This document shows, in pieces, positions 5,490 through 34,154 of a stretch of 34,568 nt of DNA; the stretch's first letter is position 1; each line of letters begins with the position of its first letter. The stretch spans positions 1-34,568 of IMG/VR virus record IMGVR_UViG_3300033153_012481. One strand, given 5' to 3'. Made by a program: the position numbers and the translations under genes. Origin of the DNA: a virus (taxonomy: Duplodnaviria; Caudoviricetes). The notes under the pieces were generated by a model. That model searched no databases. It was not told the origin of the DNA and saw only the letters and a program-made list of their open reading frames with translations.

Positions 5490-7958
5490 TTAGATGACTC
5501 CGATTCCGAGCCTAATGAAGATCCAGTTGACTGGGAACGTTGGCTGTACTGCTACTCTGATGTTCCACTGACGTGGCTCAACTGGGTCTCTTTCAACCGT
5601 TAGGTCCCTGAAGTCTGTGATTAGCCTTCTTGAAAGGAAGCTCTGCATCATTGCTGTTGCACGAGCAAAGAGTGTCTGCTGGAAGGTTGGAGTCTCTGCC
5701 TTGCCAATGAATGGGTCGAATGCAGTTCTCATATCCTTAGCAATCCTGTCTCTGATGAAGACAACTGACATTTCCTCTTCCTCTGGAAGAAGTGAGTCTG
5801 TTGTTGTTTTACCGAAGATAACAAGACCGCCACCAGAAAGTGGTCTAAGCATTGCAATACCAGCCGCTGTAACATTCTCCTCAATGATTGGGGAGAAGAG
5901 CTTGTCTCTGGTAAGAGTAAAGCCGCCAAGTGTCTTGTTTGTGAGTGGCTCCTGAATAAGGTCTCTACCACCGAACCAACCAGCTGCAGCTGCTGCCATG
6001 AAGAAGCCGTCTGCCTGAACTCTGTCAGCGCCAGTCTGAACGATTACCTCATCTGGGTAGAAGTAGAAGACACGGAAAGAATCTCCGTAGTTATTCTGAA
6101 CACCGTAATCTGTAAGGTCCTCAATATCTCCTGAAAGAATCTCAGAAACATCATCGCCCTGAATGCCCTCAAGAACACCGATGTCCTCAACAGCTGCAGG
6201 CTCTGTGCCGATAACATTCTCAGGTGTAAGGCCTCTGATTGCGCCAATCATAAGAACACGCTCACGCTTGTTCTTAATTCCGGACATGGTTTCAACGTGC
6301 GCCTTACCGTTGGAGAAGATTGCTGAGATTGTCTGAGATGGAAGTGGAACAACCATATCAACCTCAATTCTCTCCGCAGCGTCGTATGCTGAAATCCAGC
6401 CTACATCGAAGAAGTCTGCATCCCTTGTATCAACAAGCGTGCAGCGAAGTGACTCGCCAAGTGAAAGTGCAAGGTCATCTGTGAAGAGGATTCTTGAGCT
6501 TGATGCTGATGAATCTAGAACCTGGAACTCAGCACCAGTCTCTGCTGTGAATCCACCTGGGTCAGTGATTGTAACCAATCCGTTTGACACAGAGACAATT
6601 GCATATGTTCCATCATTACCAACACCAGAGTTCTCGATCCTTATTGAGCGTGTTGGAGATACATCATCAATACCGAACTGAACAGTCTGAGATGAAAGTG
6701 TTGCAGTGGTTGCTCCAGTTACAACAAGCTCACCGTCTGTACCAGACTTCTGAACAGAGTCGTCTTCAATTACTGTATAAGAGAAGTCATAAGCTGCACC
6801 GTAAACGAAGCCGAGTGGGTTCGATGTGATTGTTGGGTCGTAGAAAGCAACCTTGTTAGGAAGAATCTGTGACTCAACACCGGTAATTGGGTCTGTTACA
6901 AAGAAGTTGATGTTTGAATCAGCATCTGGAGTAACGCCAAGCGGAAGCTCGAATGTAAGCTCTTCAATATCGGACTCGCCGTTTGAAGACTCAACAAGCT
7001 GGTAAGACTCTCTGCGTGGAAGCGGTGGAGCACACTGAAGTGCAAACACACCAGGAGTTCCGTTCGCAAATGCAAGCTGAGCACCGAGAGACAGCCTATT
7101 GGAAAGAGATGGAGAACCATGTTTCGCAGTAAGCTGATTGATATCTGTAAAGAACTGAGGATCGTTTATGTCGATCTCAGGTATGTAGTTCGCTGTTAGA
7201 GATTCGCCAACTCTTAGAGAGCCGCCAGAAACCTCGAATACAAATGAGTCACCTTCAACGAATGCTGTTGAACCTTCAGAAATGGCGAACTGAAGAACAC
7301 CGTTGTTACGAGTCTGTCCATCTGACTGCCAAGTAATCTGATTACCATAACCATCAAGAACAACACCCGACACCGTTCCTCTAACTACGAACTGTGCATA
7401 TCCATCAATTGGATTTCCGTAGCCATCACGACGAACAGAGGTAACGCGAGCAGTCCAGGTTTCAGCAGGAGCATTCGGATCTAAAAGAGAAAGATTGGTT
7501 ACGGTTCCGTTTCCTGTATTAGCACCACCTGGACGGAAGAGTTCCCCACCCTGATCTACAAGAGCTGCTCTTTGAAGCTCAACGCAGTCAGACTGGATAT
7601 CAACTCTTGCATCATAACGTGAGTCAAAAGGATTGTCATCGATAGGAGACTCAAGAACTCTAAGCTCCACTCCATTCCTAAATAATCTTGTACGATTTGG
7701 AATAAGTGGACCGATAGCTTGCTGTCCACCTAGGATGAAGTGTCTACCGTCTGGAGTTCCTGTTAAAGTACAATCTGATCCGATGCCATCATTGCCGTTA
7801 CCAACAGCAAGGTTAACAATTACTTCTTCACGATTGCCTTCGCCCATCAACACAGCAGTACGTGCTCCAGATGGAACTGCAACACCAGTTGTTAATGATT
7901 CAGTTTGTGTGTATACGCCTGGTACGGCGTTTCCTGCACCTGGAAAGTTAGCTGCCAT
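5490..7958 (-). CDS. Tail sheath protein with large inserted surface domains
   Basis: N-terminal PGVYTQTES; C-terminal sheath domain EPLTNKTL..EMSVVFIRDRIAK..WNIRVAVQPTFPVNWIFI; GAGGA SD. Confidence 0.9.
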   Translation of the reverse strand: MAANFPGAGNAVPGVYTQTESLTTGVAVPSGARTAVLMGEGNREEVIVNLAVGNGNDGIGSDCTLTGTPDGRHFILGGQQAIGPLIPNRTRLFRNGVELRVLESPIDDNPFDSRYDARVDIQSDCVELQRAALVDQGGELFRPGGANTGNGTVTNLSLLDPNAPAETWTARVTSVRRDGYGNPIDGYAQFVVRGTVSGVVLDGYGNQITWQSDGQTRNNGVLQFAISEGSTAFVEGDSFVFEVSGGSLRVGESLTANYIPEIDINDPQFFTDINQLTAKHGSPSLSNRLSLGAQLAFANGTPGVFALQCAPPLPRRESYQLVESSNGESDIEELTFELPLGVTPDADSNINFFVTDPITGVESQILPNKVAFYDPTITSNPLGFVYGAAYDFSYTVIEDDSVQKSGTDGELVVTGATTATLSSQTVQFGIDDVSPTRSIRIENSGVGNDGTYAIVSVSNGLVTITDPGGFTAETGAEFQVLDSSASSSRILFTDDLALSLGESLRCTLVDTRDADFFDVGWISAYDAAERIEVDMVVPLPSQTISAIFSNGKAHVETMSGIKNKRERVLMIGAIRGLTPENVIGTEPAAVEDIGVLEGIQGDDVSEILSGDIEDLTDYGVQNNYGDSFRVFYFYPDEVIVQTGADRVQADGFFMAAAAAGWFGGRDLIQEPLTNKTLGGFTLTRDKLFSPIIEENVTAAGIAMLRPLSGGGLVIFGKTTTDSLLPEEEEMSVVFIRDRIAKDMRTAFDPFIGKAETPTFQQTLFARATAMMQSFLSRRLITDFRDLTVERDPVEPRQWNIRVAVQPTFPVNWIFIRLGIGVI

Positions 7959-8018
7959 TTAGTCCTCTTTTATTCAAAACCTTTAGAATGCTAATACGGG
8001 TTTTTATAACCTACACTT

Positions 8019-8030
8019 ATGTTTTCTTAT
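8019..8030 (-). promoter_or_regulatory. Phage promoter motif ATA-N5-RYAT
   Basis: ATA-AGAAA-ACAT upstream of the sheath gene. Confidence 0.6.
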
Positions 8031-8061
8031 GTATAGTTTACAATCCTATTTTTTAAGGGGC

Positions 8062-8856
8062 TTAGAGCCCTTCAAGCTCGTCAATGAGCTGAACTTGGGT
8101 ATTTATGGTCAAGTTTGGAGATATCACTGGTGGATTCACTCCTAAGTTGCCAAATTCTACGCAAATATTGATAGCGTCCAGCATGGACTCTACTGGTATT
8201 TCACGCCTCCATTCCATCCTGACCTCTAAGGAAATGGAGTTTTTATATAATGGCTCTTGCTGTCTATCCTGAGTTTCTGAGGGGCCTGATGAGCTAACAT
8301 TACGAATAGCCACGCCTGCCCTCAAAAGCTCCTCATATCTAATATCCTGAAGGAGCACCATTACAAAGTTTGTTAGTTCGTCTCTGGACTCAGAATCTCG
8401 TGCCCAGATATCAACAGAAACAGACCCCTCCCAAGCTCCTGCAAATACATAATGAGTAGGAGTTGTAAAGAGGCTTTCATTTCCATAACCGTCAATCACC
8501 TTTGTGACATCATACTTAACAGTTTCTTTATTTCGGTTTATGGAGATTGGTACATATTTAACCCCGCCCATTTTCACTAATAGAGCAGGATAGAAAATTA
8601 CGTCATGCCTGAATCTTTCGCCTATGAAGATTCTTGTCGTTTCATCATCATTGAAACCGGCATCAAGAGGTACATCTGTAAGGTCAGGTGTGTAAGGGAA
8701 TCCGTACTGATCGCTTACATAATGGTAGTAAGAGTCCTTTGCGAACTCGTCTCTCAGGATACCAATGATGATATCCTTCACAACATTGGTGTTCGTATTC
8801 TGAACAACGTTGTGAATCTGATTAAGATCAGATCTTGTGAAAGAGCCTGTAGTCAT
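8062..8856 (-). CDS. Tail terminator/completion protein
   Basis: Precedes sheath; YPALLVK..SVSVDIWARDSESRDELTNFV..YKNSISLEVRMEW pattern. Confidence 0.6.
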   Translation of the reverse strand: MTTGSFTRSDLNQIHNVVQNTNTNVVKDIIIGILRDEFAKDSYYHYVSDQYGFPYTPDLTDVPLDAGFNDDETTRIFIGERFRHDVIFYPALLVKMGGVKYVPISINRNKETVKYDVTKVIDGYGNESLFTTPTHYVFAGAWEGSVSVDIWARDSESRDELTNFVMVLLQDIRYEELLRAGVAIRNVSSSGPSETQDRQQEPLYKNSISLEVRMEWRREIPVESMLDAINICVEFGNLGVNPPVISPNLTINTQVQLIDELEGL

Positions 8857-8862
8857 ACAGGA

Positions 8863-8874: not shown

Positions 8875-8907
8875 CCGCTCCCAGATATAAACAGCCGAAC
8901 TTTTTTC

Positions 8908-8993: not shown

Positions 8994-9695
8994 ATGAAGA
9001 CCTCAACTCTCTCACTAATCTCAATCATCTCAATCTCTTTCCTCTCTGGCTGCGCTGGAGACACCTTTTCTACCGCAGAAGAAGCCAATGGCTCAGGGTC
9101 TAATATGAGAGACGGGTCTGGTGGTGAAGGAGCAGAGACCTTCATGGATAAGACCGGAGGCTCAAACGGTGAGTCTGGTGGATCTTCATCAACTGGTGGC
9201 ACCGATACTGGGACTGGCGGAAATGGGGGCGACACCTCAACTGGTGGCAGTGATAATACCGGAGGATCTGAAAATACTGGCGGCAGCGGAGGCGGCGAAA
9301 CCTGCGTTCCAAAAACCTGTGATACTCTCACTGTCATTCTTTCAGGTGACGCCATTCAGCAAGGTGAACCAGGGTCTTCATGCGGAACCCATGAAGATGG
9401 ATGTGGTAACTTCATCTTCTGCGATGAATGTAATGGTGACAATAGGGAATGTGGCGGTCTCCGAAACATCCGTATTACAAACCCCATTCCAGAACCTTAC
9501 GTACAAGGTGAGGCTGGTGTATGCGGAGGAGGTTGTCTTCAGCAAACAAACAATACAGTAGAGGCTTATTACTGCTCTGGCTATGCTGAAGCTTACACCT
9601 GCCCAGTCGCTACGAATGGTCCTATTCCAGCAGAGCTTGATGGTAAAGAGTGTGAATACTCAGAATGGGACTTTCGTTTTATTTGCTGCAATTAA
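8994..9695 (+). CDS. Lipoprotein with G/S/T-rich linker and Cys-rich (myxobacterial-type) domain
   Basis: Signal II lipobox LSG-C20; GGSSSTGG linker; CVPKTC..CGTHEDGCGNFIFCDEC; AAGGA SD. Confidence 0.8.
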   Translation: MKTSTLSLISIISISFLSGCAGDTFSTAEEANGSGSNMRDGSGGEGAETFMDKTGGSNGESGGSSSTGGTDTGTGGNGGDTSTGGSDNTGGSENTGGSGGGETCVPKTCDTLTVILSGDAIQQGEPGSSCGTHEDGCGNFIFCDECNGDNRECGGLRNIRITNPIPEPYVQGEAGVCGGGCLQQTNNTVEAYYCSGYAEAYTCPVATNGPIPAELDGKECEYSEWDFRFICCN

Positions 9696-12600
9696 ACTGT
9701 GTAATACAACCTCATATACGACAAGTTAATTGCTGAAGCTACACTCGCATTAGGCGTAGAAATGAATATTTCATAATGCCTGAAATCATTAATATCGTCC
9801 AGAAAGTTAGCTCCAGTTGCTATTACTTCAAGAGAATCTCCGCCATCTGCTAAGTTATGAGTAGCAGATGTATCTTGAGTAGTATTAGACCTTCTCAATC
9901 TTGCCTGGATAGTGCCTGCAGTAAAAGTTCCTATTGTAGAGAAGCTACAGTCAACTCTTATAAGCTTAGCTCCTGTCGGCGCTATCTGGTGCAGAGGAAC
10001 GGAAACATATAAGCTCTTGTTTGTTCCGGCAGCTGCAATATTTATCCTGCACAATCCTGGCTGATTGTTTCTGGTCGTTATGCTTGTCAGCGAAGTACCT
10101 GTATCAAACTCTTCAACTATAGCCATACCATTAGTAGTGGAACCACCAATATTTCCATTGTAGGCAAGAAGCTTATTCATGACATGGTTTACATTTCCAT
10201 AAACATAATCACGCTGATCTGGCTCAAATGATATCGTATTAAAAGTTGTAGTGTCTGCATCATCATTATACAGTGAGCTTAAAATGTTTCCGGTACAAAC
10301 AGTTCTAGACCCGTTACCATCAAGTGTTATGAAGTTAGTACATACAGTGTCAACTTTGTATAACTTATTGTTAACAACCTGATTTGGCTCATCTGGCGGG
10401 CTGCTTGCTGATGATGTATCTATTTCAATTCCAATATTTAGGAATCTCACCGAATTACCAGAGCAATGCGCTCTAGCCTCTACTGCTAGAATACCTGTGA
10501 GGTAAGAGGTATCTGCAATCTTTGTTTCCACAGTGTTCTCTGAAATAAATGCATTTGAGCACCCGTCAACAAATATTCCAACATCTCTAAAATCTTCACC
10601 AAAATCAGTAGAGAAATCAGTATCATTATACATTACAACATTATTGGAAACCTCAAATCTCTCGACAAGTGTATTACCAAATAATCTAACATAAGAGCAT
10701 CTGTTTCTGTTTACAGATACTGATTGGTAAGATTGAGAGAAAGCTGTGAAATTAAATCTGCCAAAAATATCGACAGACCCAATGGCCAAAGCCTGATTGT
10801 CGCTAACGGATAAATGAGAGTCTTTAACAATAAATCCATCTCCAACGCCAAGATTGAACCCTATTAACCCATCCTTAATCACATTACCCGAAACTGATGC
10901 GTTGAATAAAACCAATCCAGCTGGAGTTACATCAATAGTATTACAAGATAAAACAATACTCTGACCATCCTTTATGGTGTTATCTTTAATGGATAGGTTC
11001 GTTAATGACAGGTCAGTAGCAGCCACTCCTATAGCGCAATTCAAGGCATTTGCAGAAGACTCAAAAGTGCAATTGCTAACTGAAACATTCTCTCCAGTTT
11101 GAGATGCTGTTGAAGAGTAAAGCGCAACGTATGGCGCTCTCTCTATCGATGAAGAAGAGAATGTACACCCATCAACAGTTACATTTCCTAATAATCCTCC
11201 ACTTTCAGTTATATTTATGCACGCCAATCCAAGATCCAAATTTGAATTTGGATTAGCTGAAACAACTTCGGCATTATATTCAAATACCAAATCCTCAAAC
11301 TTAACCCCATGACTTGCAAGGAATCCGTTTTGTGAATTGACAATAATTCGTCCACCATCACCCTTGACAATCAAAGTAGTAGTATCAGTAAACCCAACTA
11401 AATCAACCTCCTCATCAATAGTGAAGTCTCCATTAACCTTAACAGTAATGGATGTGGCATCTGAGTTAGAGCAATAAGTCTTAACCGCCTCAAAAGACGT
11501 AAAGGAACTTATTCTAGAATCATCTGATATTGTAAAATCTATAGCCGCTGTTTGATTTGATATATTATTTCTAGCATCTGTAACTGAGTTTACTGTAACA
11601 GAAGCTATGGTAACATTAGCTACAGCAATTATCGTCAAATCCTTTCTAAAGTTTGTTAGCTCATCAAATGTAACAGATGGTATGTAGTAGTTATCAATAT
11701 CAGGGAGCCTTCTCGCAAAAAAGTGCTGCTTAGTTAATGTTACAGGTATTGCCTCTAACAAGTCCTTATCATTAACACAAATAGCCCAATTAAGCGTTGT
11801 TACATCTCCGCCACCAGTATCCTGAACAATTTCTGGTATAGAAACTGAAGATGCCGACATTGTTGACATATGACCATTCACAAGAGCAATGCCTCCGTTA
11901 AAATCAAGTGTTCCAGGCTGAGAAATGCTCTCACCAGAAAATGTAAACCCTTGAATTACACCGTTCTCATGAAGGTACCTCTCTCCAGCTTCAATAAACC
12001 TAATAGCGGAATCTGTAAGGTCAACCTCGGAAACATTTCCAAACTCTCTAAGGTCATTAATATGTGTAACAGAGTTATCTACGAGCACACACCCGGCAAG
12101 TCTTAGATTTTCTTGATTTGTTGCAAGAGTATCGAAAACCTCAATATCAACGTACCTCTGATCGGCAGTGGACATAACCAAAGTTCCTGGACGCTGAATC
12201 TCTTCAAAGAATTCAATTTCAATGAAGTCAACATCTGTTGAGTCATAGAACCTTGTTGGCACATCCTTTCTAGCTCTAACCACTCTACCGAAATCAGTAA
12301 TATCATCAGTTCCGGTTACTCTCTTTCCTAAATAACCGTCAAACTCTCCGGTAGTAGTATCATAGTCAGTGACCATGAATCTAACGAATCTGTTTGTTCC
12401 AGTAGCTCCATCATCAATAAAGCCCTTGAGCTTTGGTGATACCTCTGTGATTCTGAAACCATTCTGAGTTCCAAGAAGAGATGGAGTCTCTGCCTGGAGA
12501 GGAAGCCTTGCTCTTTCATGAGTAAAGGTCTTACCCTCCTCATTCGCAAATACTTCATGATACCTTGAGAAAGGATTAACGTTAATTGTATCAATAACGT

Positions 12601-14767
12601 TAGCTTGATTAAATCCTACCGAATCCTCTCCAAAGTGAAGTCTTACCTGGAGTGGCGGCGTTGCCGATGCACCAATAGGCGCACCAGAAGCATGGATAGA
12701 GTTCACAACAGTGATCGATGTAGTAGCATCCACGCCTGGACAGCAATCAGTAAAGTTAACCTCTTTAATTACAAACCTTCCATAATCAACCTCATTGAAT
12801 AGAGCGTCTCCTCTATCAATTGCAGGCTGTATAGTAATCGTTTTTCAAGGCTTAAGCTCCGCTCTAGCAAGGATTCCATTTACCTGATAGGTTGTCTCTA
12901 CAGTAGTAGCTCCAACTGGCACACGACTTGAAACGTACCCATCCCAGTATGGAGTGGTTGGAGTAGTGAGATATGTTGTAGCAAATGAATCTCTAGAGAT
13001 TCCGTTAACTGAGTAATTTCTCTTATCAAGAGGGAAGTGTACGACTGTTGGATATGTCGCTGCGGCCAATGCGGAATCATATGAAGACTGGTAATTAATA
13101 GATGCAACAGAAGCTTTAGAAAAACCAAATCCAAGAGCGTCTCTTGAGTCTACCGCATCACCTATAACGTTGTTTACATATACACCGGATACTAAAGAAC
13201 CAGCTGTAAGACTTCCGTTAATGATAGAGAACGCCGCTCCATTAATGGAGTCAGTCATCATGATTCCAAACTCACCATCCTGCTGGTAAGCCATGAATCT
13301 ATAATTGTAACCACCAGCCCTAAGAGCATTATTGGTAGCATTAACTACTGAATCTATTGTATACTTGCCTGGTGTGATGCCCGCATTTCCGGTGACATCA
13401 ATCGCTGGAAGATCAATTGCAGCTTCAGCTGGATTACCAGTGGGGTAAAGAGCTAAATATAAACTGTAGTGAGTTGAATCTAGTTGAGTCGGGTCGAAAC
13501 CGATACCCAAAACTCTAGCAGCCTTTGGGTCTCCAACGATAAGAGATGATGTAATCGCTGGATCAATATCGTTGTTCGCAGCAGCTACTGCAAATGTGCC
13601 CCAGTTATTAGTTTCAAATCTCTTCCTATCAATCCTTACAGATGCAGCATATCCATCTGCTGGCCAAAGGTTTGTTCCATTGATTCTAACAACCCACTCT
13701 AAACCTGGGTCATGCCTCTTAGATTCAACATTGAAAACTCCCTCTATTCCATTTCCGTAGTTAACTCTTACTACATCACCAACAGCAACCTTAGCAAACT
13801 TCTCATCGAAAAGGTTGCTAGTATTATCCGGATTGAAAACAATAATGTCATCACCAGTAGTATTATTATCTACAGGAGAGGTGATTGGGCAGTTTACAAG
13901 ATACGCAGACGCTGATGTTGGAGGTATAATGTTGTATGAATAACCATCAACATTTCCAACAAGGACAGATCTAGACTCCCTAGGTACACCATTTGTATGC
14001 TGATTTCCCTGGTGCTGCTGGATAACGATAACATTAGCGTCATCAATTGCATCAAGAGACTTCTGAACAGTATCCGCAGATTGCGGTAACACTGTAAAGT
14101 TAGATGTATCCACAAAGATACCAGAAGCTGTATGCGCACCACCAGTTGAATTAAGCTCGTGTGCTACAAAGACATCATTAATTTCAAGAAGAGCCTCAGC
14201 AACAGTTGTTGCTGCTCTTGGATCTCCGTTCTTATCAAGAAGACCGGTCCAGTTGAAAGATGGGTCTCTTGGGTCATTAGGAGTCGCATTTATATCAATG
14301 TGAGAAGCTACATGGCGTCCTGCAGTTGAACCATCTGAGAGAACAACAGCACCTGCAATATGTGAGAGAAGGTCAGCGTTTGTAGTTGCCAAGAATGCTG
14401 CGGTTGAATTTAGTAGATTTGAGTTTGCAGTAATCTGAGCATTCAAATCAACTGTATTGAAATCAAGAGATAACTTTGACTCCTCGATACCAGCATTCGC
14501 ACCCACCTGAGGGTTATCAATTGGTAGTGTCGCTAGCCCTACAGATGTAAGTGCGGAAGCTTTGATGGTTCCATTTGGGTTAATGGAAACATCAAGCCTA
14601 TTCACAACGGAAGAAAGGGAGCCGGATGGATTAGTACCCAGCTCTCTTTCGATTGCAAAGACAGCAGATCTAAGCCGATTTATTGCCTCTGTGCCAAGCT
14701 CAGAAAGGTTGTCATCAATTCTTATGATGGTTGTATCATCATCTATTTGAAAGGGATATACTGTCAT
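9692..14767 (-). CDS. Large tail fibre/baseplate-associated protein with C-terminal beta-helix; one 1,691-codon frame with an internal TGA at 12845-12847
   Basis: Track ORFs of 640 aa and 1013 aa share a frame, joined by 37 sense codons (KTITIQPAIDRGDALFNEVDYGRFVIKEVNFTDCCPG); parallel beta-helix repeats (VTVDGCTF, VSVSNCTF, SIKDNTI, SVSGNVI). Confidence 0.75.
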
Positions 14768-18909: not shown

Positions 18910-20502
18910 TTATGGAAGTATTATGTCGTGTCGGTGACCTAAGACTTCACATACAACTCCGTTTTGGATCGGATGGGAATGCCCCTGAACGATGTTTGTA
19001 TTCTGATTTACCTGGGCCAGAGACATGATTCCCTCATTAATCACTATCTCATGGAGATGTGGAGGGATTGATCCAGGCACCATGCCGATTCCGGTATTGA
19101 CGGTCTGCGGCATGAGAGATGTATCGTGAATGACCCTGAACTGATTAATTGGGTCTGTTTTGCGAACTCTGACTGCTGTGAATATCTGTCGTCCATCATT
19201 GTTGCCGAATGTCTTATTTCTGGTAACATTGATGATCTCGTACCTGAACTCAGGGGTTCCGTCCCTATTGTAACCAATAAGAACATCGCCATCCTTAATC
19301 ATTGGGTAAGAGAGAGTCCAGCCATTAACGATGAACTCATTTTCGAGACCCATCTCCTCACGCTTGATATCCTCCTTAGTAGGATCGAAGCGAACAAGGA
19401 TTCTACCGTCAGACCTTCTAGAGTTGAAGAACTGCTCGTATCCAACAACCATGTCAGTGCCATGGTTATCCAGACCTCTGTAGATAGTGTTCTCTTTCTT
19501 GTTATCGTAATGCCTTGACACCTTTCCAGATGTCTGCCTCTTCATGAGAACCATAGGCATGCCGTATGTCTCTAGAAGGATTTCCTCACGCTGGTTCTGG
19601 TGGTCATCGAAGCCTAATCCTCTGATTGGGCCACCCACGCTATCATACCCATCAGCACAATAGTGCTCACCACCAAAATAAGTTCCAATACACTTGCCTC
19701 CAATGTAATCCTCCGGTCTTGTTCTGTGATACCCGGCATAGTCATACTTCTTGAAATTCTCGTTGAGACAATCTGGTATATCTGTGTCTGGGTAAACTAT
19801 GTGATCCTTCTCCTTGTATCCATCACCCGCTACATGAGCGTACTTGTATGGACCAAAATCATTCTCCTCAAGCATTACTGACTTATTGCACTCTTCAAAA
19901 CCCTTATAATGCCTTACAATAGGGTCTCTCTGAACGTAGCCGTCGTAACCATCAACGTTATGCTGCCTAGCCTCAGTACCGAACATACCTCTTTGAGCAG
20001 CAGATGAAATCAGGGATGAATTAACAAAGTCAACAGAAGAGTATCCTATAATCTCTCCGCCTGCTTGAATTAATCCATAGGATGGAAATGTATCTGCATC
20101 CATTATTGGAATCACCGTATCAGTTGCAGAAATGTCCTGAAGCAGCAATCCCTCTGGATAAACAGAGACATTGTTAATCACTGGAAGCTGCATGAGGTTC
20201 ACATCATTGATTGGGAATGATGTTCCACGTACAGCGAAGTAGTAAACATCACCAGGTATTAAGTCTGGTATGTTACCGGTAGTTTGTGTTCCGTTAGATA
20301 CAACGAACTTAATGCCCTCATCAAATACTGACTCTCTATCTGAAGAGTAGTAGATATTATAAGCAACATTGTAGTCAAGACGTTGTGAATATGCCTGATA
20401 CCAATCTATCTTTACAGTATACCCATCGCCAAGAGAAGAAGCTATCTTTATCCCAGCAAATGGTGGATTCGCATATGTGGGAACAGGATTAAAGCAACCC
20501 AT
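18910..20502 (-). CDS. Head-closure/neck protein with N-terminal FN3 domain and C-terminal HxH repeats
   Basis: FN3 pattern VKIDW..YNIYYS..DLIPGDVYYFAVR; closure-like WTLSYPMIKDGDVL..RYEIINVTR; HLH/HSH/HRH tail. Confidence 0.6.
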   Translation of the reverse strand: MGCFNPVPTYANPPFAGIKIASSLGDGYTVKIDWYQAYSQRLDYNVAYNIYYSSDRESVFDEGIKFVVSNGTQTTGNIPDLIPGDVYYFAVRGTSFPINDVNLMQLPVINNVSVYPEGLLLQDISATDTVIPIMDADTFPSYGLIQAGGEIIGYSSVDFVNSSLISSAAQRGMFGTEARQHNVDGYDGYVQRDPIVRHYKGFEECNKSVMLEENDFGPYKYAHVAGDGYKEKDHIVYPDTDIPDCLNENFKKYDYAGYHRTRPEDYIGGKCIGTYFGGEHYCADGYDSVGGPIRGLGFDDHQNQREEILLETYGMPMVLMKRQTSGKVSRHYDNKKENTIYRGLDNHGTDMVVGYEQFFNSRRSDGRILVRFDPTKEDIKREEMGLENEFIVNGWTLSYPMIKDGDVLIGYNRDGTPEFRYEIINVTRNKTFGNNDGRQIFTAVRVRKTDPINQFRVIHDTSLMPQTVNTGIGMVPGSIPPHLHEIVINEGIMSLAQVNQNTNIVQGHSHPIQNGVVCEVLGHRHDIILP

Positions 20503-21045
20503 TTAGGCTCCTAGAAGTTTAATGAGACAATGCCTTCTTTGAGCTACGGTTTCCATTAGCTCCTCTTTCTTGTCTTCGGCCTTTGCTCCGTCATAGTCGT
20601 GATGATCTAAAACCTGCTCAATGTATTTTTCAGCTGTGCTCTCATCGGCAACATCAGCCATATACTCAACCTGGTTTTGAAAGCCCTCAATCTCGAATTC
20701 GTTCTCAAGATACTCTCCATCCTCAGCGCCCTTGGTTGGTTTTGAGCCTGTGGTCTGCTGAAGGAAGTGAGTTATCTCATGCACCATGTAATGATCGTCA
20801 TCATCAAAACCATCCTCTGAATCCAGAAGAGAGATATTGAAGTAGATAATACCATGGTCTGTTCTAGCTGAGACATCTATGTCTGCAAAACACATTGGAA
20901 TCAGGTCAATCTCAGAAATATCCACACCATGGTCCTCAAACATATCCTTCACCACATCGTGGTCTTTGATAAGCTCCCTGACCTTGTTTATCTTTTGGCG
21001 CAGTTTTTTCTGGGGAATTCCAGTTGTTTTAATATCTTCAGCCAT
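20503..21045 (-). CDS. Zinc metallopeptidase-like protein (HExxH)
   Basis: VHEITHFLQ plus downstream EIEGF glutamate ligand; GAGG SD. Confidence 0.7.
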   Translation of the reverse strand: MAEDIKTTGIPQKKLRQKINKVRELIKDHDVVKDMFEDHGVDISEIDLIPMCFADIDVSARTDHGIIYFNISLLDSEDGFDDDDHYMVHEITHFLQQTTGSKPTKGAEDGEYLENEFEIEGFQNQVEYMADVADESTAEKYIEQVLDHHDYDGAKAEDKKEELMETVAQRRHCLIKLLGA

Positions 21046-21145: not shown

Positions 21146-21793
21146 TTAGCTAATATATCTTGAAAGATACTTGCCAAAAAGGAATGGAGAATTATACATC
21201 ATTATGTCATTCATGTGCAATTTAGCATCTGCAGAGATTGACTCAGGAAATGCTGTAAGGTCAGAGCCAGGATATGTTCTCCTGAAAATTCCCATGCAGC
21301 ATCTATAATTCTGCTCGTAATTATCTATAATAGACTTAGCTAGGTCATCAGACAAATCTAAAAAATTAAATATTTCAATTATAGAATCATCTGGCTCACC
21401 AACCAAATCTTCATAATAAACTAGCATCTTTTCCCCATCCCAATCTTCATATGACTTGAGAACAGACATATACTTATCATAACCCTCATCAAGATATGTC
21501 CTCTGATAAAATGAGTTATCAACCTCATCCTTCACAAAAGACTTCCTGACAAACACATCCCTATAGTTTCTAACAAGAAAAATTGCTTTATTACCAATTC
21601 CCATATCAGAAGCTTCAATTTCACGCTTGGAATGAAGTATAGACTCTTTTCTTAGGTCTACCCCAATAGGGTAGACTTCTCCGATTGGCTTATCTTCAAT
21701 GCCTGGACCGGTAGTTGGTAGCTTGGTGGAATATTCCACCATGTAACGCACCCAGAAATCTCCTGAGTGATTATATGATACAATTAGGTTCAT
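21146..21793 (-). CDS. Sulfotransferase-family protein (degenerate PAPS loop)
   Basis: IVSYNHSGDFW (cf. SYPKSGTTW), IFLVRNYRD, LVYYEDLVGEP; start moved to ATG 21793 with GGAG SD. Confidence 0.7.
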   Translation of the reverse strand: MNLIVSYNHSGDFWVRYMVEYSTKLPTTGPGIEDKPIGEVYPIGVDLRKESILHSKREIEASDMGIGNKAIFLVRNYRDVFVRKSFVKDEVDNSFYQRTYLDEGYDKYMSVLKSYEDWDGEKMLVYYEDLVGEPDDSIIEIFNFLDLSDDLAKSIIDNYEQNYRCCMGIFRRTYPGSDLTAFPESISADAKLHMNDIMMYNSPFLFGKYLSRYIS

Positions 21794-21865
21794 ATCAGCT
21801 CCAGTAGTTAAAGTTGTGGTTAAGTCTTTCAACTTCAAGTGTCTTACTAGAACTTGCGTATTATT

Positions 21866-22304: not shown

Positions 22305-23267
22305 CTAGTATATCTGGCGTTGGCGAAGATGTCTAAGCCTTCGGAATTGAGGGGAAGCAGCAAGAGGACGGAGTGTTCCCATACCTATTGGAGATGGCTT
22401 CATGTTGTGCTTGATAAGCTTAACCTTATCCCACCAGTTATCCATTTCCTTCTGGTACTGAGAGTTCAGAAGCTCTGAAACGGTTGGTGGTGTGAAGCCT
22501 AATCCGGCATCTGAAATCTGGAACTCACGACCACGCTCAATCAGTGCCTGAGCAGCTAGAGCCTGATACAATGCACCCTGCACCAATACATCAAAGAATA
22601 ACTCAATGATTGGTGTGTCGTCATAAGTGAACATTGTGAAGTGTGGAACCTCGTTAAACATTGAAAGCGAGTCTGCTAAAAATGTAACAAGCTCATCTGT
22701 AGAGAAGATGTCACAAGTATCATACACAATGTTTCCAAACTCATCACAGGATGGCCTTACGCCTGAGGACTTAAGTCTTCTTCTTAGTGCCTTGAGGAGA
22801 TTGTTAATATTACAGATAGCATTCTGAGAATAGCAGAAACCTGGGTCATCACCTAAGTGCTTATATCCATCAGTGTTAGTAGCTGGAAGCTGTGTGGTAT
22901 TAACCTGAAATGTACCCTCACCTCTTACAGTAAAGCCATCAACAGTTCCTTCCCATACATCACGCCACACACCCATGTCTGGATGCAGCCCGAGTGTAAA
23001 GTCAAACGAGTACTCACCCTCACCTGTTCTGAAAACGCCCTGAGAGGTTGGCCCTACAACAACTGCACCTGTAGTGTCAATGATTGATACGGATGGAAAT
23101 GTATCCGTATCTCTTGGCTGTCCATCTGGTCCTGTGAAAAGGAATCCAAGACGAACAGTCTCTCCAGGTTTAATCACCAATGAGCGTGGCTTAGTTGGTG
23201 AGAATACTGGATTGATTGTCATTGCGATGCATTCTGGGCACCCTGCTGCGCAACCATTGCAAGCCAT
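22305..23267 (-). CDS. Head-tail adaptor/neck protein with N-terminal Cys cluster and Ig-like domain
   Basis: Helical C-terminal half LLKALRRRL..FSTDELVTFL..LVQGALYQAL typical of adaptors; GAGGT SD. Confidence 0.6.
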   Translation of the reverse strand: MACNGCAAGCPECIAMTINPVFSPTKPRSLVIKPGETVRLGFLFTGPDGQPRDTDTFPSVSIIDTTGAVVVGPTSQGVFRTGEGEYSFDFTLGLHPDMGVWRDVWEGTVDGFTVRGEGTFQVNTTQLPATNTDGYKHLGDDPGFCYSQNAICNINNLLKALRRRLKSSGVRPSCDEFGNIVYDTCDIFSTDELVTFLADSLSMFNEVPHFTMFTYDDTPIIELFFDVLVQGALYQALAAQALIERGREFQISDAGLGFTPPTVSELLNSQYQKEMDNWWDKVKLIKHNMKPSPIGMGTLRPLAASPQFRRLRHLRQRQIY

Positions 23268-23277: not shown

Positions 23278-23619
23278 TTATATTGGAGTTGCTGTTGAGT
23301 TTCCGAACGGACGAGCTACATTAATAGTAAACAGCTGCCAAACCGGATTCGAAGTTCCAGGCTGTGTATACATAACAGATGCTGTAAATGTACCGAGAGA
23401 TGTTAGCCCTGGTGGGATAATCATATCATAAACGTAAAGCCCTTCCTCTAGACGAGTCATAGGCTGCGGGAATCCCTGAGCTAAAGAGCGATCTGGGAAA
23501 TAGATGGACATGACCTGTGGCACTGCTCCATCTTGGCGTGCCCCATACCCATCCACAGTCTGCACAAGAAGTGAGACTGTCTGACCTGGATTTGCAAAAA
23601 GTGGAATAGCTTGGCTCAT
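23278..23619 (-). CDS. Small Ig-like virion protein
   Basis: PGQTVSL..TRLEEGLYVYD resembles PGETVRL..FRTGEGEYSFD of the next gene. Confidence 0.55.
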   Translation of the reverse strand: MSQAIPLFANPGQTVSLLVQTVDGYGARQDGAVPQVMSIYFPDRSLAQGFPQPMTRLEEGLYVYDMIIPPGLTSLGTFTASVMYTQPGTSNPVWQLFTINVARPFGNSTATPI

Positions 23620-25600: not shown

Positions 25601-26682
25601 AACATTTTACCTAGCGTATCAATAAAATATTTAGCATCATCTTTACCGTACTCACCATAATGTGATATTCTTACGAAATCTCGAACTGACCCTCCTCGAC
25701 TTAATATCTTCATAAGAGGAGATGTCCCTGAATGAACAGAGCCACATGCTGAGCCAAGCCCTATGTATATCTTTTTCCATGAGAGCTGCTGCATCAATAT
25801 CTGTGAGTACTGACCCTGTGGCAATCTTGCGAATGTTGTACCCGGAGCCCTTGGACAATCCTTACCAATAATCTCAAACCCAAGCTCTTCAAGTCCTGGC
25901 TCAAGCACTGCCTTGAACTCAACCATCTTCTGCATGCGCTCATCCAAAGTCTCATTCGCATGCTTAAGAGCTGCAGCTGATGCAACAATAGATGGCACAT
26001 CTGGTGTTCCTGGCCTATCTAAGAAGTACCTAGAACCAGTTGAATTAGCTATCCAGTTATCAGTATTTCTCAAGTAAAGAATTCCAACTGATGATGGCCC
26101 TCCAAACTTATGAGAACCAAATACTGCTACATCTAAGTTAGGTATGTCTTTTAATTTAGGCATCTTTATTTTGCCTGGAGTCTGTGACATATCCAGAAAT
26201 AAAGATTTGCACTTAAGCTTAGTTACTGGCTGTATGATACCCATCTCATTTTGCACATGAATAGATATCACAGCTGACTCTTGAGGAATTGGGTACTCTG
26301 TATCAATAAGCCCAGAAGCATTTGTGCTTAATAAGACGCGCTTTGGAATGGATTCCTTAGCTGCCTGCCTCATTGCTGCATGCTCTGTTGGGGACATGTA
26401 AATAGGCCTATCCTCATTCATCTTTGCAAACATCTTCATTCCCCAAGAACAAGCCTCAGTGCATGTAGATGTAAAGATGACCTGAGCTGGGTATTCTGCC
26501 CCAAGCAGATCTGCTATCTCTTTCCTAGCAAGTTCAATAGCCGCTTCAGCCTCCCTTCCAGGAGCCGATGGGGCCAGAGCGTGTCCATGACCAGCAAGAG
26601 ACGAGTTCGTCTCAATAAAGGCGTCCATGGCTGGTCTGCATATTGGTAAGTGGGCATTTGCATCTAGAAATAGTTCAGGCAT
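25597..26682 (-). CDS. Cysteine desulfurase (IscS/NifS group I, PLP-dependent)
   Basis: FLDANA, FTSTCTEA, EH, NEMG, DMSQ, GSHKFGGP (PLP Lys), RPGT, GSACGS (catalytic Cys); likely start ATG 26682. Confidence 0.9.
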   Translation of the reverse strand: MPELFLDANAHLPICRPAMDAFIETNSSLAGHGHALAPSAPGREAEAAIELARKEIADLLGAEYPAQVIFTSTCTEACSWGMKMFAKMNEDRPIYMSPTEHAAMRQAAKESIPKRVLLSTNASGLIDTEYPIPQESAVISIHVQNEMGIIQPVTKLKCKSLFLDMSQTPGKIKMPKLKDIPNLDVAVFGSHKFGGPSSVGILYLRNTDNWIANSTGSRYFLDRPGTPDVPSIVASAAALKHANETLDERMQKMVEFKAVLEPGLEELGFEIIGKDCPRAPGTTFARLPQGQYSQILMQQLSWKKIYIGLGSACGSVHSGTSPLMKILSRGGSVRDFVRISHYGEYGKDDAKYFIDTLGKML

Positions 26683-26689
26683 GCCCTTC

Positions 26690-26698
26690 AATATATCA
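26690..26698 (-). promoter_or_regulatory. Extended -10-like promoter TG-A-TATATT
   Basis: 7 nt before the ATG at 26682; same TGATATAT core as 4756 and 22290. Confidence 0.5.
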
Positions 26699-26700
26699 AC

Positions 26701-28725: not shown

Positions 28726-29612
28726 TATGAATTCTCCCAACTAACCCTTGTAACAGTAAGGTCATTTATTGTTAAGTCTTGATCTTCAGCCTTTAATTTT
28801 AGCAAATAACCACCAGAAATAGATACGGCATCTGCAACTGTTATAAAATCATATGTTAAAGAAAAATTTAAAAATTCATTTTTATCAGCAAGAATAAAAA
28901 CCTGCTGCTGAGTAAAACCAGAAACAGGATTCTCAACGGTTAAGACAACTTTTTTGTTCTTTTTATTATCAGGCTTTGTATAGTCTATTATAACTCTCCA
29001 GTAATGCGTCTGTCCAGGTACTGGATTTTCAAACCATGATCCGCTTACAGGGTCATGGAGTAAAGGAATGAAATCATCATAATCATTAACTGGATCCTTT
29101 CCTGGAAGATTATTGGATACAGTTTTGGGAAATTTTGAAAATGAAGCAAACTCAGACTGGTTGAAAGATCTTATTGTAAACTCAGTATCTCTCTTTAATA
29201 ATAATGACTGAACAACCCCGTTAAGCTTTACTGCTCCCCCATTTGGAGTTGAATATTTAAAGTATCCGTCTTCCCCATCAGTTAACAACATGTCCCCGTC
29301 AAAACTTGGACTGGGAAAAATATCTGGTGTACCTAAACTTATCTCTCCCATATCAGAAGATAAACCGTTTATCTTTGTAATGCTTTCAGATACTTTTTTA
29401 TTTAACGGCCTAGTGTAAGAAGGTTGATTAGCAGCAATCAAAAAATCAAGTGAACTTTCAATCTCAGGAGTTACTTCTACTGAAAAATAAAAAGTAGTAT
29501 CCCCAGAATCTTCTCTATAATATTGTAGAGTGTCTAGATCAAAATTAGTATAAAAATCTTGAAACCATTCGTCGTTAAGAACTACACCTGTCTTATTTAT
29601 AAAATTTGCCAT
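28725..29612 (-). CDS. Decoration protein (N-module B + C-module X)
   Basis: C-terminal two-thirds paralogous to 29612-30514; TAATG coupling. Confidence 0.65.
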   Translation of the reverse strand: MANFINKTGVVLNDEWFQDFYTNFDLDTLQYYREDSGDTTFYFSVEVTPEIESSLDFLIAANQPSYTRPLNKKVSESITKINGLSSDMGEISLGTPDIFPSPSFDGDMLLTDGEDGYFKYSTPNGGAVKLNGVVQSLLLKRDTEFTIRSFNQSEFASFSKFPKTVSNNLPGKDPVNDYDDFIPLLHDPVSGSWFENPVPGQTHYWRVIIDYTKPDNKKNKKVVLTVENPVSGFTQQQVFILADKNEFLNFSLTYDFITVADAVSISGGYLLKLKAEDQDLTINDLTVTRVSWENS

Positions 29613-30588: not shown

Positions 30589-31560
30589 CTACAATATATC
30601 AATAGATTCCTTTACTATCTCATACTCAGCATTATACATAAACCTTATCTGTGATGGAATAAAACTTAGAGTATCATATTCGAAATGCTCTTTAGGAGCT
30701 ATAATGCGTATTTTAATACCTTTTTCATGAACGCATTCATCATAGTAAACATCGTTAGCCATAATTTCTGCAGTGATAAGCTCAAGAACACGAGATATTT
30801 GTGGGAGTAACCTTGTATCCTTAACCCTTCCTACATTAAGAGGAGATGTGAGTATCACATCGATCTCTGTCGCTCCAAGCTCAACAGCATCTCTCAATGG
30901 CGCTGTCTCACGTACTCCACCATCAGTCCAGTTATAGCCATCTATTTCTGGCATTGGAAAGAATATGGGAAACGCAGACGAGGCCATTATCCAATCTTTA
31001 ATATCATCAGACTTCTCGTTTCCAGTCCTATACTCACCTGTCTGAAATGATACAGCCCCAACCCTTAGCTTCTTTCCAGACATATTAAGACGCTCAACAT
31101 CAAGCCTTTTATTAATAATATTCCTAAGGGGCTTTGTGCTGTAAATAGATCTGTTAAATTTCACACATTTTAGCATTGGCACTACAACCATTGCAGCGAT
31201 ATTAAGAATGGCTACCCCAAGAAAAGTTATTGATATCCATTTAGGCAGAGCAAAAAATAAAAGCGCAAAGCCTGCTACTACATGAGCCAGTATACATACA
31301 GCAATAATAATTATAAACATCAATAATCTATGAGTTCTAATAGATGAATTACCTTTGATGTCATTCATCCAAACCCTTTCAAGTTCAGATAGGGTTTCCC
31401 TTAATGGACCAGTTGCCAGAAGCGACGAATTCAACGCTCCAACAGAAATGCCAGTATAGATATCATAATCAAGTTCAGGATCTTCTTCCTGAAGCTTCTT
31501 AAGTACGCCAAGTTGGAATGCGCCCTTGCAGCCACCCCCAGATAGAACTAATGCCTTCAT
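30589..31560 (-). CDS. Patatin-like phospholipase with inserted transmembrane hairpin
   Basis: LVLSGGGCKG, GISVG (GxSxG), ASSAFP, DGG; two hydrophobic helices at ~aa 78-128; GAGGTG SD. Confidence 0.9.
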   Translation of the reverse strand: MKALVLSGGGCKGAFQLGVLKKLQEEDPELDYDIYTGISVGALNSSLLATGPLRETLSELERVWMNDIKGNSSIRTHRLLMFIIIIAVCILAHVVAGFALLFFALPKWISITFLGVAILNIAAMVVVPMLKCVKFNRSIYSTKPLRNIINKRLDVERLNMSGKKLRVGAVSFQTGEYRTGNEKSDDIKDWIMASSAFPIFFPMPEIDGYNWTDGGVRETAPLRDAVELGATEIDVILTSPLNVGRVKDTRLLPQISRVLELITAEIMANDVYYDECVHEKGIKIRIIAPKEHFEYDTLSFIPSQIRFMYNAEYEIVKESIDIL

Positions 31561-31644
31561 ATATACACCTCTGATGTATATCTAAATAGTCATTATTAAA
31601 TGCTCTTTCAGTGGTTAAACTCAATAAGCACTAAAAGTGTAAAA

Positions 31645-32709
31645 TTACAGTTCATGAACAGTACAATAGAAAGTAGCTGTAGATCTCTCTCCACCAAATT
31701 CCCTGGAGTTTCTAGTCTTAATTCTCAATTCAATACCCTGGGCCGAATTCAAGTCTCTTACAGTGTTGTAATTGAATGGAAACCCTAATGTATTCTTAGC
31801 TTTTCCAAGTACTGGACCACCCACAGCTGGTATTATTGGATAGGAGCCTGCTGCCTCATCCACAAAATTATGTATAGATTTATAAGCGTTCACCTTAATT
31901 GGCACTTTGTTAGGTAAATCATAAGGATTATAAGCCCAAATCTCAAAGTCTACAGCATCTGTATAATCTATATCATCAGAAAACTGCACCTCTGACATCT
32001 CTATCTGTATTCTTTTACCCGGATCTGGTACTAAATACCAGTTAGATGTAGTGGCATATGAATAATCTACCTCAACTACTCTACCAGTCTGATCTTCGAA
32101 GAAATTAATATAACCGTCCCTATAATCTACAGAGAATTCACAGTCATTATCACATGGTTCAAATGGAGTTAGCTCATATTGTTCATATCCATCAACCCTA
32201 ACAACTACTTTATAGCCATGAGAAACCTTTGCAGATATCTGGTCCTCTCTATGAACCTTACCATGTTTCATATCGATTATGAATTCATGTCCTAATTTAT
32301 ATGAGTTCCCATCAATATATGTAGGGCTTTCATTTTCCACCCTTATGGAATCACCAAACCAGGTTGTTTTGTCCGCAAAGTTATGTGTAGCGACCTCTAA
32401 GTCAGAACCAATACGCTTCTCTGGAACAACCATGAGACGCCCGCCTACATCATGTGCCTCTGCAAGCTCAACCTGATCGATGAAGTTAATGGGATCTCCA
32501 TCATGGGCTGCAACTACACTCTGAAGTATAACTACATCACCTGGGGCAAGAACATCTTTGAAAACAATATCGTAATAACCGTCAGAGCCAATTATTCCAG
32601 AGATTGCTGTAGCTATATCTGAATCCTGAATTTGAACCTGTAAAGCAGATGGCTCAATTCTATCATTTGCAGATTCAGTTTCGTGATATGTATATGTTGT
32701 TAAATTCAT
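31645..32709 (-). CDS. Virion structural/decoration protein
   Basis: 354 aa, beta-rich, three DGY motifs, TAATG-coupled to the upstream fibre gene. Confidence 0.55.
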   Translation of the reverse strand: MNLTTYTYHETESANDRIEPSALQVQIQDSDIATAISGIIGSDGYYDIVFKDVLAPGDVVILQSVVAAHDGDPINFIDQVELAEAHDVGGRLMVVPEKRIGSDLEVATHNFADKTTWFGDSIRVENESPTYIDGNSYKLGHEFIIDMKHGKVHREDQISAKVSHGYKVVVRVDGYEQYELTPFEPCDNDCEFSVDYRDGYINFFEDQTGRVVEVDYSYATTSNWYLVPDPGKRIQIEMSEVQFSDDIDYTDAVDFEIWAYNPYDLPNKVPIKVNAYKSIHNFVDEAAGSYPIIPAVGGPVLGKAKNTLGFPFNYNTVRDLNSAQGIELRIKTRNSREFGGERSTATFYCTVHEL

Positions 32710-34154
32710 TATGTAGTCCTAATTACACTTAGCCGTGATCCATTAGAAGCAAATCCTAGAGTCCCACCAGCTACAACATTTGTTCTAATTCTTACCTTGT
32801 CATTAGCATTAATGTTTAAAGCAATAGTTGCTGATAAGGTATCCTCATCATTTACAGAATTTCTATGGTAGCCAAAGCTTCTAGTTCCAAGCACCTCAAA
32901 AAACCCACCACCCTGATTTCTCTCCAAGAAAGCAGTTGATGAAGTTCTTGAATTTGTAGATTGAGTTAATGAAACGTCATAACTAAAAAGATAAACACCA
33001 GCCTGAGTTATAGTTACTTCACTTGCTGCAAGTACAATGCTTCCAGTAGTTATAGCTGAAACGTTTGTTAACGGAACAGTTATTGGGGTGGTTGTAAATG
33101 TTGTACCAGATGCATTCAAATAAAATGAAGCTAAATCATTATTAATTGCTGAACCCCCACCAGTTGCATCTATTGTAATATCTACTTCATCATTAGCAAC
33201 ATCATCTGCAATAGTCATTGTGATGTTCGAACCCTCAATGAAATTCAAGCGTCTTCTTGTCCCAGTATCAGTTCCAGAATTTTTACGAACAGTAACCTCA
33301 TTAGCTCCAGCAACAGAAGCTACATTAGCTCTAAAGAATGCTGCAACCCTATTGCCAGTTATATTTCCTGGACCAGTTACCGTGAAGAAGTTAATCCTAT
33401 CACCTGCAGATATAGCCACAGGAGTACCTAATGTAATAAAAGAATCTTGAGCGTTTGACGTAATGGAGGCTCCTGAATCAGATCCATTTACTTCAAGCCT
33501 TACAGTTGCGGAACCTCCACCTGCAAGGTTTAATGTTAGAGCATAACACTCACATGAAATTGGTATTACAACACCTCCAGTATTTGGGGTATCATCTCCA
33601 TTACCAAATGCCCACTCATAAGAATTATTTCCTAAGTCTCCATTCTCCTCTGCCCAGATTGCAAACGTAGTCCCATTTGCTCCAAGTTCAGCATCAATAC
33701 CGGAGAGGTGAGCAGATAGATTATCTACATCACTCACCTCCGGTGGAGAAATGTCAGGATTATAGTTAATAGGAGTAAAATCAATACTAATCTGATCTCC
33801 ATCAATTTCATCACCACCACCAAGTATATGTGATGTAGCATGAGAAGATGAAGCGTAACCATCCAAAGCTATTTGAATATTGTCGATTCTGTCAGTGTTA
33901 TAATCAATCTTCTCTTCGCCTGGTGGTCTCAGTGCTGCCTCTGAATCCTCTTGACCTAGGGTTCCTGATCCATCATTAATGAGAATGTTGCCAGCTTGCA
34001 CCTGGGCAAATAAATCAGCTGACTCTTGCACTTCCCATACAAATAGAGTTTCCGTGAGATCAAAGCTTCCATTACCTGGAATAGAAACTCCAATGTCATC
34101 AAGGTCTATTTGACCTGCCACCTGGTTCTCTGCTATAAGGACCCTGGTAGTCAT
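32709..34154 (-). CDS. Fibre/decoration protein with N-module A and C-terminal C1q/BclA-like domain
   Basis: VTITQAGVYLFSYDV..LNINANDKVRI..SRLSVIR; RRRLNFIEGSNIT linker; AGGAG SD. Confidence 0.7.
   Translation of the reverse strand: MTTRVLIAENQVAGQIDLDDIGVSIPGNGSFDLTETLFVWEVQESADLFAQVQAGNILINDGSGTLGQEDSEAALRPPGEEKIDYNTDRIDNIQIALDGYASSSHATSHILGGGDEIDGDQISIDFTPINYNPDISPPEVSDVDNLSAHLSGIDAELGANGTTFAIWAEENGDLGNNSYEWAFGNGDDTPNTGGVVIPISCECYALTLNLAGGGSATVRLEVNGSDSGASITSNAQDSFITLGTPVAISAGDRINFFTVTGPGNITGNRVAAFFRANVASVAGANEVTVRKNSGTDTGTRRRLNFIEGSNITMTIADDVANDEVDITIDATGGGSAINNDLASFYLNASGTTFTTTPITVPLTNVSAITTGSIVLAASEVTITQAGVYLFSYDVSLTQSTNSRTSSTAFLERNQGGGFFEVLGTRSFGYHRNSVNDEDTLSATIALNINANDKVRIRTNVVAGGTLGFASNGSRLSVIRTT

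Follow-up and report, generated by a model that had tools for sequence, protein, structure and literature searches.

Freeman et al. are said to have reported in 2023 that mycobacteriophage virions are glycosylated by phage glycosyltransferases. The short target motifs (sequons) known from protein glycosylation include N-X-S/T, the Campylobacter D/E-X-N-X-S/T, and the Bacteroidota D-S/T-X; N-glycosylation sequons typically exclude proline. Phage virions can be glycosylated, according to the available text of PMC12582341, and Tyr O-glycans occur on S-layers, as described in the accessible part of PMC2943079. Here we analyze a 34.6-kb stretch of phage DNA (34,568 nucleotides [nt]; IMG/VR virus record IMGVR_UViG_3300033153_012481), called the window below at its full length, in which the tripeptide Asp-Gly-Tyr (DGY) recurs across virion proteins. 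Judged from the window and its relatives, DGY is an exact, selected tripeptide with a proline rule, carried by proteins that we predict to form the outer surface of the particle. The explanation that we favor, at a little short of an even chance, is that DGY not followed by Pro is a sequon for Tyr O-glycosylation, with the priming sugar added by a conserved phage glycosyltransferase, GT4.

DGY is over-represented in the window and across its clade

The window has a GC content of 41%, carries almost all of its genes on the minus strand, and includes a contractile-tail module with matches to sheath, tube, adaptor, and tube-initiator proteins. Its 34 proteins (11,122 amino acids [aa]) contain 21 DGY, all encoded on the minus strand, which agrees exactly, in total and gene by gene, with a sequence-only reading made earlier (its coordinates being the low ends of the minus-strand codon triplets). 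A six-frame count gives 23, again all on the minus strand, of which 21 lie within genes and the other 2 in very short segments between stops. Composition alone would give 2.0 (Poisson p = 6e-15) and a DG × GY Markov model 3.8 (p = 8e-10); by either measure, no other tripeptide of the window is as strongly over-represented as DGY. None of 5,000 within-protein shuffles gets to 21 (mean, 2.1; maximum, 8), nor does any of 5,000 draws with the DG positions fixed (mean, 3.2; maximum, 12). The earlier estimate that chance would give 2 to 3 copies is borne out by both the composition and the shuffle figures, and the enrichment holds against the shuffled and the DG-conditioned backgrounds alike. Composition or DG-turn bias as the cause is ruled out by the shuffles, the DG-fixed draws, and the near-miss motif counts given below. 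A DNA repeat is likewise ruled out, because 11 different 9-mers encode the sites, four of which read DGYG; the signal lies at the peptide level, as the sequence-only reading had held.

By sequence, the window falls in a clade of myoviruses that are related to phage G and have genomes of 400–480 kb. A sheath search returned 45 IMG/VR loci at 42–100% identity on contigs of up to 458 kb, and the search for the sheath alignment retained the best 80 of 420 matches. The clade capsid protein is 52% identical to that of Bacillus phage G, the nearest cultured relative by capsid protein. One relative (G018) is a strain 99.6–99.8% identical to the window, and another (G016) continues this near-identical strain with an exact overlap of 128 nt, so that the baseplate and glycan genes missing from the window can be read there. 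The clade has DNA polymerase III alpha and genomes of up to 480 kb, and differs on both counts from the Moraphages, for which the available text of PMC12619734 gives a family-B DNA polymerase and genomes of up to 307 kb.

The enrichment survives the DG correction and holds clade-wide. Eight relatives were scanned in 20-kb stretches, with observed/expected counts of 84/23, 47/13, 61 (no expectation), 91/17, 80/22, 101/21, 86/8.5, and 95/5.4; DGY is the top tripeptide in seven of them, the eighth (G003) being dominated by a repeat protein. Within the virion modules of six genomes, bounded by core structural genes, DGY occurs 293 times against 25 expected, a pooled count that is not independent since sites in different genomes are partly homologous. 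Outside the modules it occurs 171 times against 89 expected, with much of this in accessory fibre-like genes. Extreme density is seen in the accessory fibres of G010 (L223-L227; 95 DGY in 31,000 aa), and G013 (L213-L220) is likewise extreme.

The motif is concentrated in predicted outer virion proteins, as a structural versus nonstructural comparison shows. Eleven outer families, grouped as orthologues, contain 249 DGY against 14 expected, whereas 10 inner or head families contain 1 against 6 and 301 orthologues of 57 enzymes contain 9 against 17; families were labeled outer or inner by their position, by profiles, and by the general architecture of phages, and the counts were known when the outer set was chosen. 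Capsid, portal, tube, and enzymes have no DGY excess. Among the control phages, there is no excess in the tail region of phage G (3 versus 3.0 expected) or in tail or head regions of LR745208 (0 versus 1.8 and 3 versus 2.5), and Tunturi_5 has 5 against 1.6 expected.

The motif is exact and has been gained repeatedly

Near-miss motifs in the six virion modules are at most slightly raised and mostly depleted (observed/expected: DGF, 47/33; DGW, 10/7; EGY, 4/18; NGY, 16/24; DAY, 11/21; DYG, 16/25). All three residues and their order therefore matter. Since Tyr is not replaceable by Phe or Trp in these counts, a hydroxyl-bearing residue appears to be required, in a statistical sense. The deep branches G010 and G013 enrich DAY too (45/13), as would fit an enzyme of drifting specificity. 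Pro follows DGY at +1 in 1 of 528 cases, compared to 156 of 3,086 other Tyr of the same proteins, and after similar flanks are clustered the figure is 1 of 391 (p = 3e-8). Beyond this proline rule the flanks carry almost no further information. A calcium-binding Dx[DN]xDG motif was ruled out, as Asp is not enriched at −2 or −4. Tandem DGY at a spacing of 3 occurs in 11 cases, and fibres carry up to 19 copies each.

The tail sheath (gene 5490-7958, minus strand) has three DGY in its inserted domain (residues 178, 185, and 202; 7347..7427), which spans residues 135-260 or so. In an AlphaFold model built on a 33-row alignment (predicted local distance difference test [pLDDT] score, 80) they fall in two hairpin turns and one loop, so the mapping proposed in the sequence-only reading places DGY in predicted turns and a loop, at the level of secondary structure. 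Of 38 aligned sheaths, 29, 32, and 33 have DGY at the three sites; in the most distant ones the sites read DSY, DAY, or DEY. To judge from this alignment, the sheath sites overwrite an ancestral D-x-Y-G hairpin. The putative neck or head-closure protein (530 aa; 18910..20502, minus strand) has five DGY, at 19645, 19816, 19936 and 19945 (the tandem DGYDGY), and 20419. Among 59 homologues, DGY occupies 28 alignment columns, 5 common and 23 sporadic, and one site is near-invariant (55/59). These alignments indicate that DGY has been gained repeatedly.

A conserved glycosyltransferase next to a DGY-rich fibre

By gene content, two clade-specific enzymes track DGY: GT4 and an HExxH protein. GT4 (L471:2558-3667 in the near-identical strain) carries the EX7E motif and opens a glycan cluster in which it is followed by GT2s, a GDP-mannose dehydratase, and a fucose synthase; nucleotide-sugar enzymes are part of the clade core. 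The best 80 of 109 GT4 matches gave 79 loci, of which two were dropped because they had no intact open reading frame call, and 68 of the remaining 77 have at least 9 kb upstream. In all 68, the DGY-rich baseplate fibre stands directly before GT4, and in 66 DGY reaches at least three times expectation upstream of it (817 versus 50). Other transferases near GT4 are patchier, at 55, 55, 37, 36, 25, 21, 13, and 10 of 63. GT4 is present in 7 of 7 sheath-selected genomes that reach the locus (G001-G004 and G010-G012) and also in G016; the copy in G010 is divergent (about 34%). GT2-type genes are disfavored as the priming enzyme, being missing beside GT4 in several DGY-rich loci such as L420, L422, L427, and L458. 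The lipid-carrier priming transferase PF02397 was found in 0 of 5 complete genomes (flippase and oligosaccharyltransferase were not searched for), which fits a cytoplasmic protein acceptor.

If GT4 primes DGY, it would put the first sugar on the tyrosine in the cytoplasm of the infected cell, at exposed turns of outer virion proteins. The neighboring variable glycosyltransferases, methyltransferases, and sulfotransferases would extend this first sugar into a sugar coat, which would shield the particle from proteases, adsorption, or host surface defenses. The HExxH protein may belong to the same pathway.

Several points weigh against GT4 priming of DGY. To our knowledge, no GT4 primes tyrosine. 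The synteny is circumstantial, and because the 68 loci were retrieved with GT4, its presence in them is by construction; the near-identical records L433 and L434 have GT4 with only 2 DGY upstream. The partial homology of sites means that pooled p values overstate independence, and DGF is itself mildly up (1.4×). The only natural loss of DGY accompanies loss of HExxH. In that DGY-poor phage the contig ends about 300 nt past the baseplate fibre, before the GT4 locus, in both assemblies. Glycosyltransferase clusters of jumbo phages have been read as modifiers of host-surface polysaccharides, at least in the available part of PMC7824862. When GT4 was modeled in complex with the DGY-bearing domain of the sheath, the score was 0.00, which counts neither way.

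An HExxH zincin and other candidate readers

The second enzyme is encoded beside the neck gene (20503..21045, minus strand) and is distantly DUF4157-like, a candidate reader of DGY or carrier of cargo. This 180-aa protein is predicted to be a small zincin, with HExxH and a downstream Glu ligand (H89 E90 H93, E118/E120). H89, E90, H93, E118, and E120 are invariant in 56 aligned rows, the model has a zincin fold (pLDDT, 87), and its Foldseek matches are zincins, with minigluzincins nearest, all weak (E > 0.001). The gene is core and single copy, and lies no more than 100 nt from the neck gene in 54 of 75 loci. PF13699 (DUF4157) matches 36 of 56 members at E values of up to 0.5 (best, 3e-4), below the curated cut-off; the window protein scores 13.2 bits against a cut-off of 22, and one fused member scores 24 bits. 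No sequence match of the protein in NCBIfam or PDB links it to the alpha-ketoglutarate-dependent HExxH hydroxylases known as RiPP enzymes, nor do these appear among the listed Foldseek matches.

That this zincin reads DGY is a doubtful but serious alternative. It could cleave D-G/Y in exposed loops (with Tyr at P1' and Pro excluded from P2'), bind the loops, or prime them chemically, for example by Asp hydroxylation ahead of sugar transfer. Asp hydroxylation is a known activity of HExxH enzymes with a zincin fold (PMC12636437). Pro at P2' blocks thermolysin-type enzymes. All 139 family members that cover the HExxH motif keep it intact, and the family has no match in cultured phages, phage G included. 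Of 26 neck-selected loci, 21 extend as far as the adaptor, and in 20 of these the HExxH gene stands between the adaptor and neck genes. A DGY-poor phage (G019+G014) is nested among DGY-rich lineages (FastTree support of 1.0 with L153; the sister group L148/L150 keeps three sheath DGY). Here the adaptor abuts the neck gene across a 21-nt gap, and a filter-free profile search over roughly 92 kb found no HExxH gene. Its ten outer orthologues (8,796 aa) hold 7 DGY, with 1.7 expected, whereas six of seven relatives have 27–41. Its neck protein has lost the DGYDGY and CADGY loops by deletion. The nearest homologue of this neck protein (P0244) is eroded too, with 2 DGY, compared to 3–7 in the other 109 full-length homologues of the alignment. 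The deep-branching G030 has other genes at the HExxH spot and 0 DGY in its neck protein. Co-loss of HExxH and DGY in one relative (n = 1) therefore makes HExxH a real rival, and lends thin support to the sequence-only reading, which had pointed to this gene as lying upstream of the most DGY-rich one. However, the co-loss is single, and G019+G014 may have lost the glycan cluster as well, while G010 keeps HExxH but has only 8 DGY in its ten outer orthologues (95 genome-wide). Moreover, fusions to a range of cargo (2H phosphoesterase, NUDIX, topoisomerase IB, DnaJ, and LRV) account for 84 of 139 family members; the HExxH domain is N-terminal in 71 of the 84, and the cargo domains are of cytoplasmic type. 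Together with the weak DUF4157 match in 36 of 56 members, the fusions suggest that the protein is a cargo carrier that is injected and not an enzyme acting at the surface. Cutting at three sites within 27 residues of the folded sheath domain would also be predicted to excise a strand. Seven records with DGY-rich neck proteins (3–5) have no HExxH in the 0.1–2.4 kb of contig left upstream and are uninformative. They are among 47 further records, of which 12 have both genes and 9 have the neck gene near a contig end and no HExxH (these seven, G030 with no DGY, and one fragment); no further clear HExxH-less lineage was found among the 47. HExxH and GT4 action on DGY are compatible. In a dedicated virion-finishing pathway, the DUF4157-like zincin would recognize D-G-Y loops on every outer subunit and nick, prime, or dock there, alone or before a GT4-made coat; we think this unlikely, on a par with zincin reading in general.

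Less probable still, DGY could be a docking motif for a nonenzymatic decoration protein, made by the phage or its host, with which tail, neck, and capsid cement would be coated. The exact three-residue motif in protruding, deletable loops and the many small beta proteins of the virion module would suit this, but a small modification is easier than a bound protein to reconcile with tandem DGYDGY and with up to 19 copies in one fibre, the flanks are nearly devoid of further information, and no DGY-free small core gene stands out as the binder. Another Tyr modification has a slim chance, whether the adjacent sulfotransferase would sulfate the residue or a kinase of phage or host would phosphorylate it. 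With its acidic residue close to Tyr, DGY looks like a sulfation or kinase site, a tyrosine-phosphatase-like gene is clade core, and sulfotransferase-like genes were found in 3 of 10 records searched. However, the scanned core genes, several of which have no family, include none named as a protein kinase, and the adjacent sulfotransferase-like gene (21146..21838, minus strand) is sporadic in the clade. It occurs in 2 of 72 HExxH loci with 3 kb upstream (from the best 80 of 133 matches) and is absent from the complete DGY-rich genomes G002 and G004. It is accordingly rejected as the DGY reader, and the suggestion of the sequence-only reading is not supported. The glycan cluster of the near-identical strain holds a second sulfotransferase, flanked by methyltransferases, and this hints at a role in tailoring glycans. 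The least probable explanation, already largely refuted, is that DGY is simply a favored beta-hairpin turn of beta-rich virion proteins, inherited by homology. The sites do lie in turns, those of the sheath derive from a D-x-Y-G hairpin, and the one neck site is near-invariant. Against this, NGY, DGF, and DGW are not comparably enriched, the phage G and LR745208 regions show no excess and Tunturi_5 only its 5 versus 1.6, and the loops are deletable, with DGY gained in unrelated proteins and columns.

The HExxH family draws attention for its fusions as well. Fusion partners across the family (window, 20503-21045; P0363-P0510) include 2H phosphoesterase/Acb1-like, NUDIX, topoisomerase IB, DnaJ, LRV/PcfJ, and further zincin domains, and the neck locus of these phages seems to house a polymorphic system for carrying cargo. 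In one DGY-rich phage (G009:C1:8999-10417), an 880-nt insertion with its own open reading frame, possibly an intron, splits the HExxH gene. Another motif, L-x-K-x-A, is enriched in cargo-like and head-associated proteins without DGY (42 versus 12; outer proteins, 3 versus 6), carried by G002 genes L058:2-3277, L058:6582-9971, and L081-L082 and their orthologues. It may be a cleavage site of a head protease, an "inner" counterpart of the DGY tag.

Other features of the window and clade

The remaining DGY sites of the window lie in eight further features, all on the minus strand. A 264-aa putative tail terminator (gene 8062-8856) has one at 8485..8493. The labels "terminator" and "head-closure" used in the sequence-only reading are positional, no family profile having confirmed either, although its DGY counts for both genes stand. 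Its four DGY in a giant fibre-like gene (9692..14767; sites at 12332, 12935, 13649, and 13940) are present too, but in two open reading frames (3 + 1 DGY) rather than one. An in-frame TGA (12845-12847, minus strand) splits this fibre gene of roughly 1,700 aa, where the 99.8%-identical strain L001 has GGA. The L001 copy stops elsewhere (925 aa), and the window TGA is a variant or an assembly error. Full-length relatives of the fibre have 2–11 DGY each. Single sites occur in a 320-aa head-tail adaptor (22863..22871; gene 22305-23267; weak phrog_17327 match), a 113-aa small beta protein (23545..23553; gene 23278-23619), for which five relatives' copies hold 16 DGY, and a 295-aa decoration-like protein (29262..29270; gene 28725-29612). 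A 354-aa decoration-like protein (gene 31645-32709) has three DGY within 32110..32583, and a 481-aa BclA-C-like protein (gene 32709-34154) has one at 33855..33863. The patatin-like gene (30589-31560) does contain the DGY attributed to it (30934..30942), but as a tag site this one is probably incidental, because its two relatives with a hit have none.

The gene at about 9 kb is, as a correction, a lipoprotein gene without DGY (8994-9695), alone on the plus strand, encoding 233 aa with a lipobox, a Gly/Ser/Thr linker, and a Cys-rich end. Its C-terminal third is unlike that of the near-identical strain L001. Language-model features make it Myxococcota-like with good but not high confidence, a lead only; it may be a host hint or a superinfection-exclusion gene. 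This lead conflicts with clade contigs binned in metagenome-assembled genomes (MAGs) of Chitinophagales, Gammaproteobacteria, and Hydrogenedentes. Two records inside bacterial MAGs, L308 (JAIXLO010000160.1, 383 kb) and L309 (CAZGHY010000001.1, 145 kb), have both a DGY excess and GT4 and are probably mis-binned. A cysteine desulfurase-like gene (25597-26691) is kept within the virion module of most relatives, the DGY-poor phage included. The clade core (G002 L054-L056) also includes ribosomal protein S21, IF3, peptide deformylase, trigger factor, ClpP, and DnaJ and, further on, a TubZ-like tubulin.

Comparison with known systems

Literature searches, with subscription papers and supplements outside their coverage, found no description of a DGY tag. 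A three-residue tag that is kept, and gained again and again, in dozens of unrelated outer proteins implies that the enzyme reading it follows a rule both simple and portable. If GT4 is that enzyme, this would be a defined Tyr O-glycosylation sequon with a soluble priming enzyme, which is new enzymology and a possible glyco-engineering handle, in a widespread clade of huge phages with sugar-coated particles. If it is the HExxH protein, DGY would give a DUF4157-like domain its first substrate motif, and a virion-finishing pathway would mean a three-residue address for the whole virion exterior.

Mycobacteriophage virion glycosylation resembles the proposed system in that phage-encoded glycosyltransferases lie near structural genes, with the particle surface as likely target (PMC12582341, available text). 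Here, in contrast, a strict tripeptide marks many unrelated outer proteins of a clade of 400-480 kb myoviruses, Tyr is the likely acceptor, and the capsid protein and tube are untagged. Tyr O-glycosylation of Gram-positive S-layers shares a Tyr acceptor on an exposed lattice, but in the accessible part of PMC2943079 its glycans are moved by an oligosaccharyltransferase to 2–4 sites per protein; the window clade has a fixed sequon and no PF02397 (0/5 complete genomes). Bacillus phage G (Donellivirus) differs in having neither a DGY excess in its tail region nor an HExxH homologue. As for the HExxH neighbor, it is like DUF4157/eCIS_core, as presented in the available text of PMC8213781, in its HExxH, its N-terminal fusion to varied cargo, and its place beside a contractile-tail machine, and its cargo fusions resemble the DUF4157 toxin-carrier arrangement described there. 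It is unlike that domain in matching below the Pfam cut-off, in its single copy at a fixed neck position in phage, and in its one co-loss with DGY. DGY differs from the known sequons in its residues, in not accepting Glu, and in belonging to a proposed system that would be cytoplasmic and phage-encoded, yet it shares with them a short exact motif, an acidic residue two before the likely acceptor, and the exclusion of proline.

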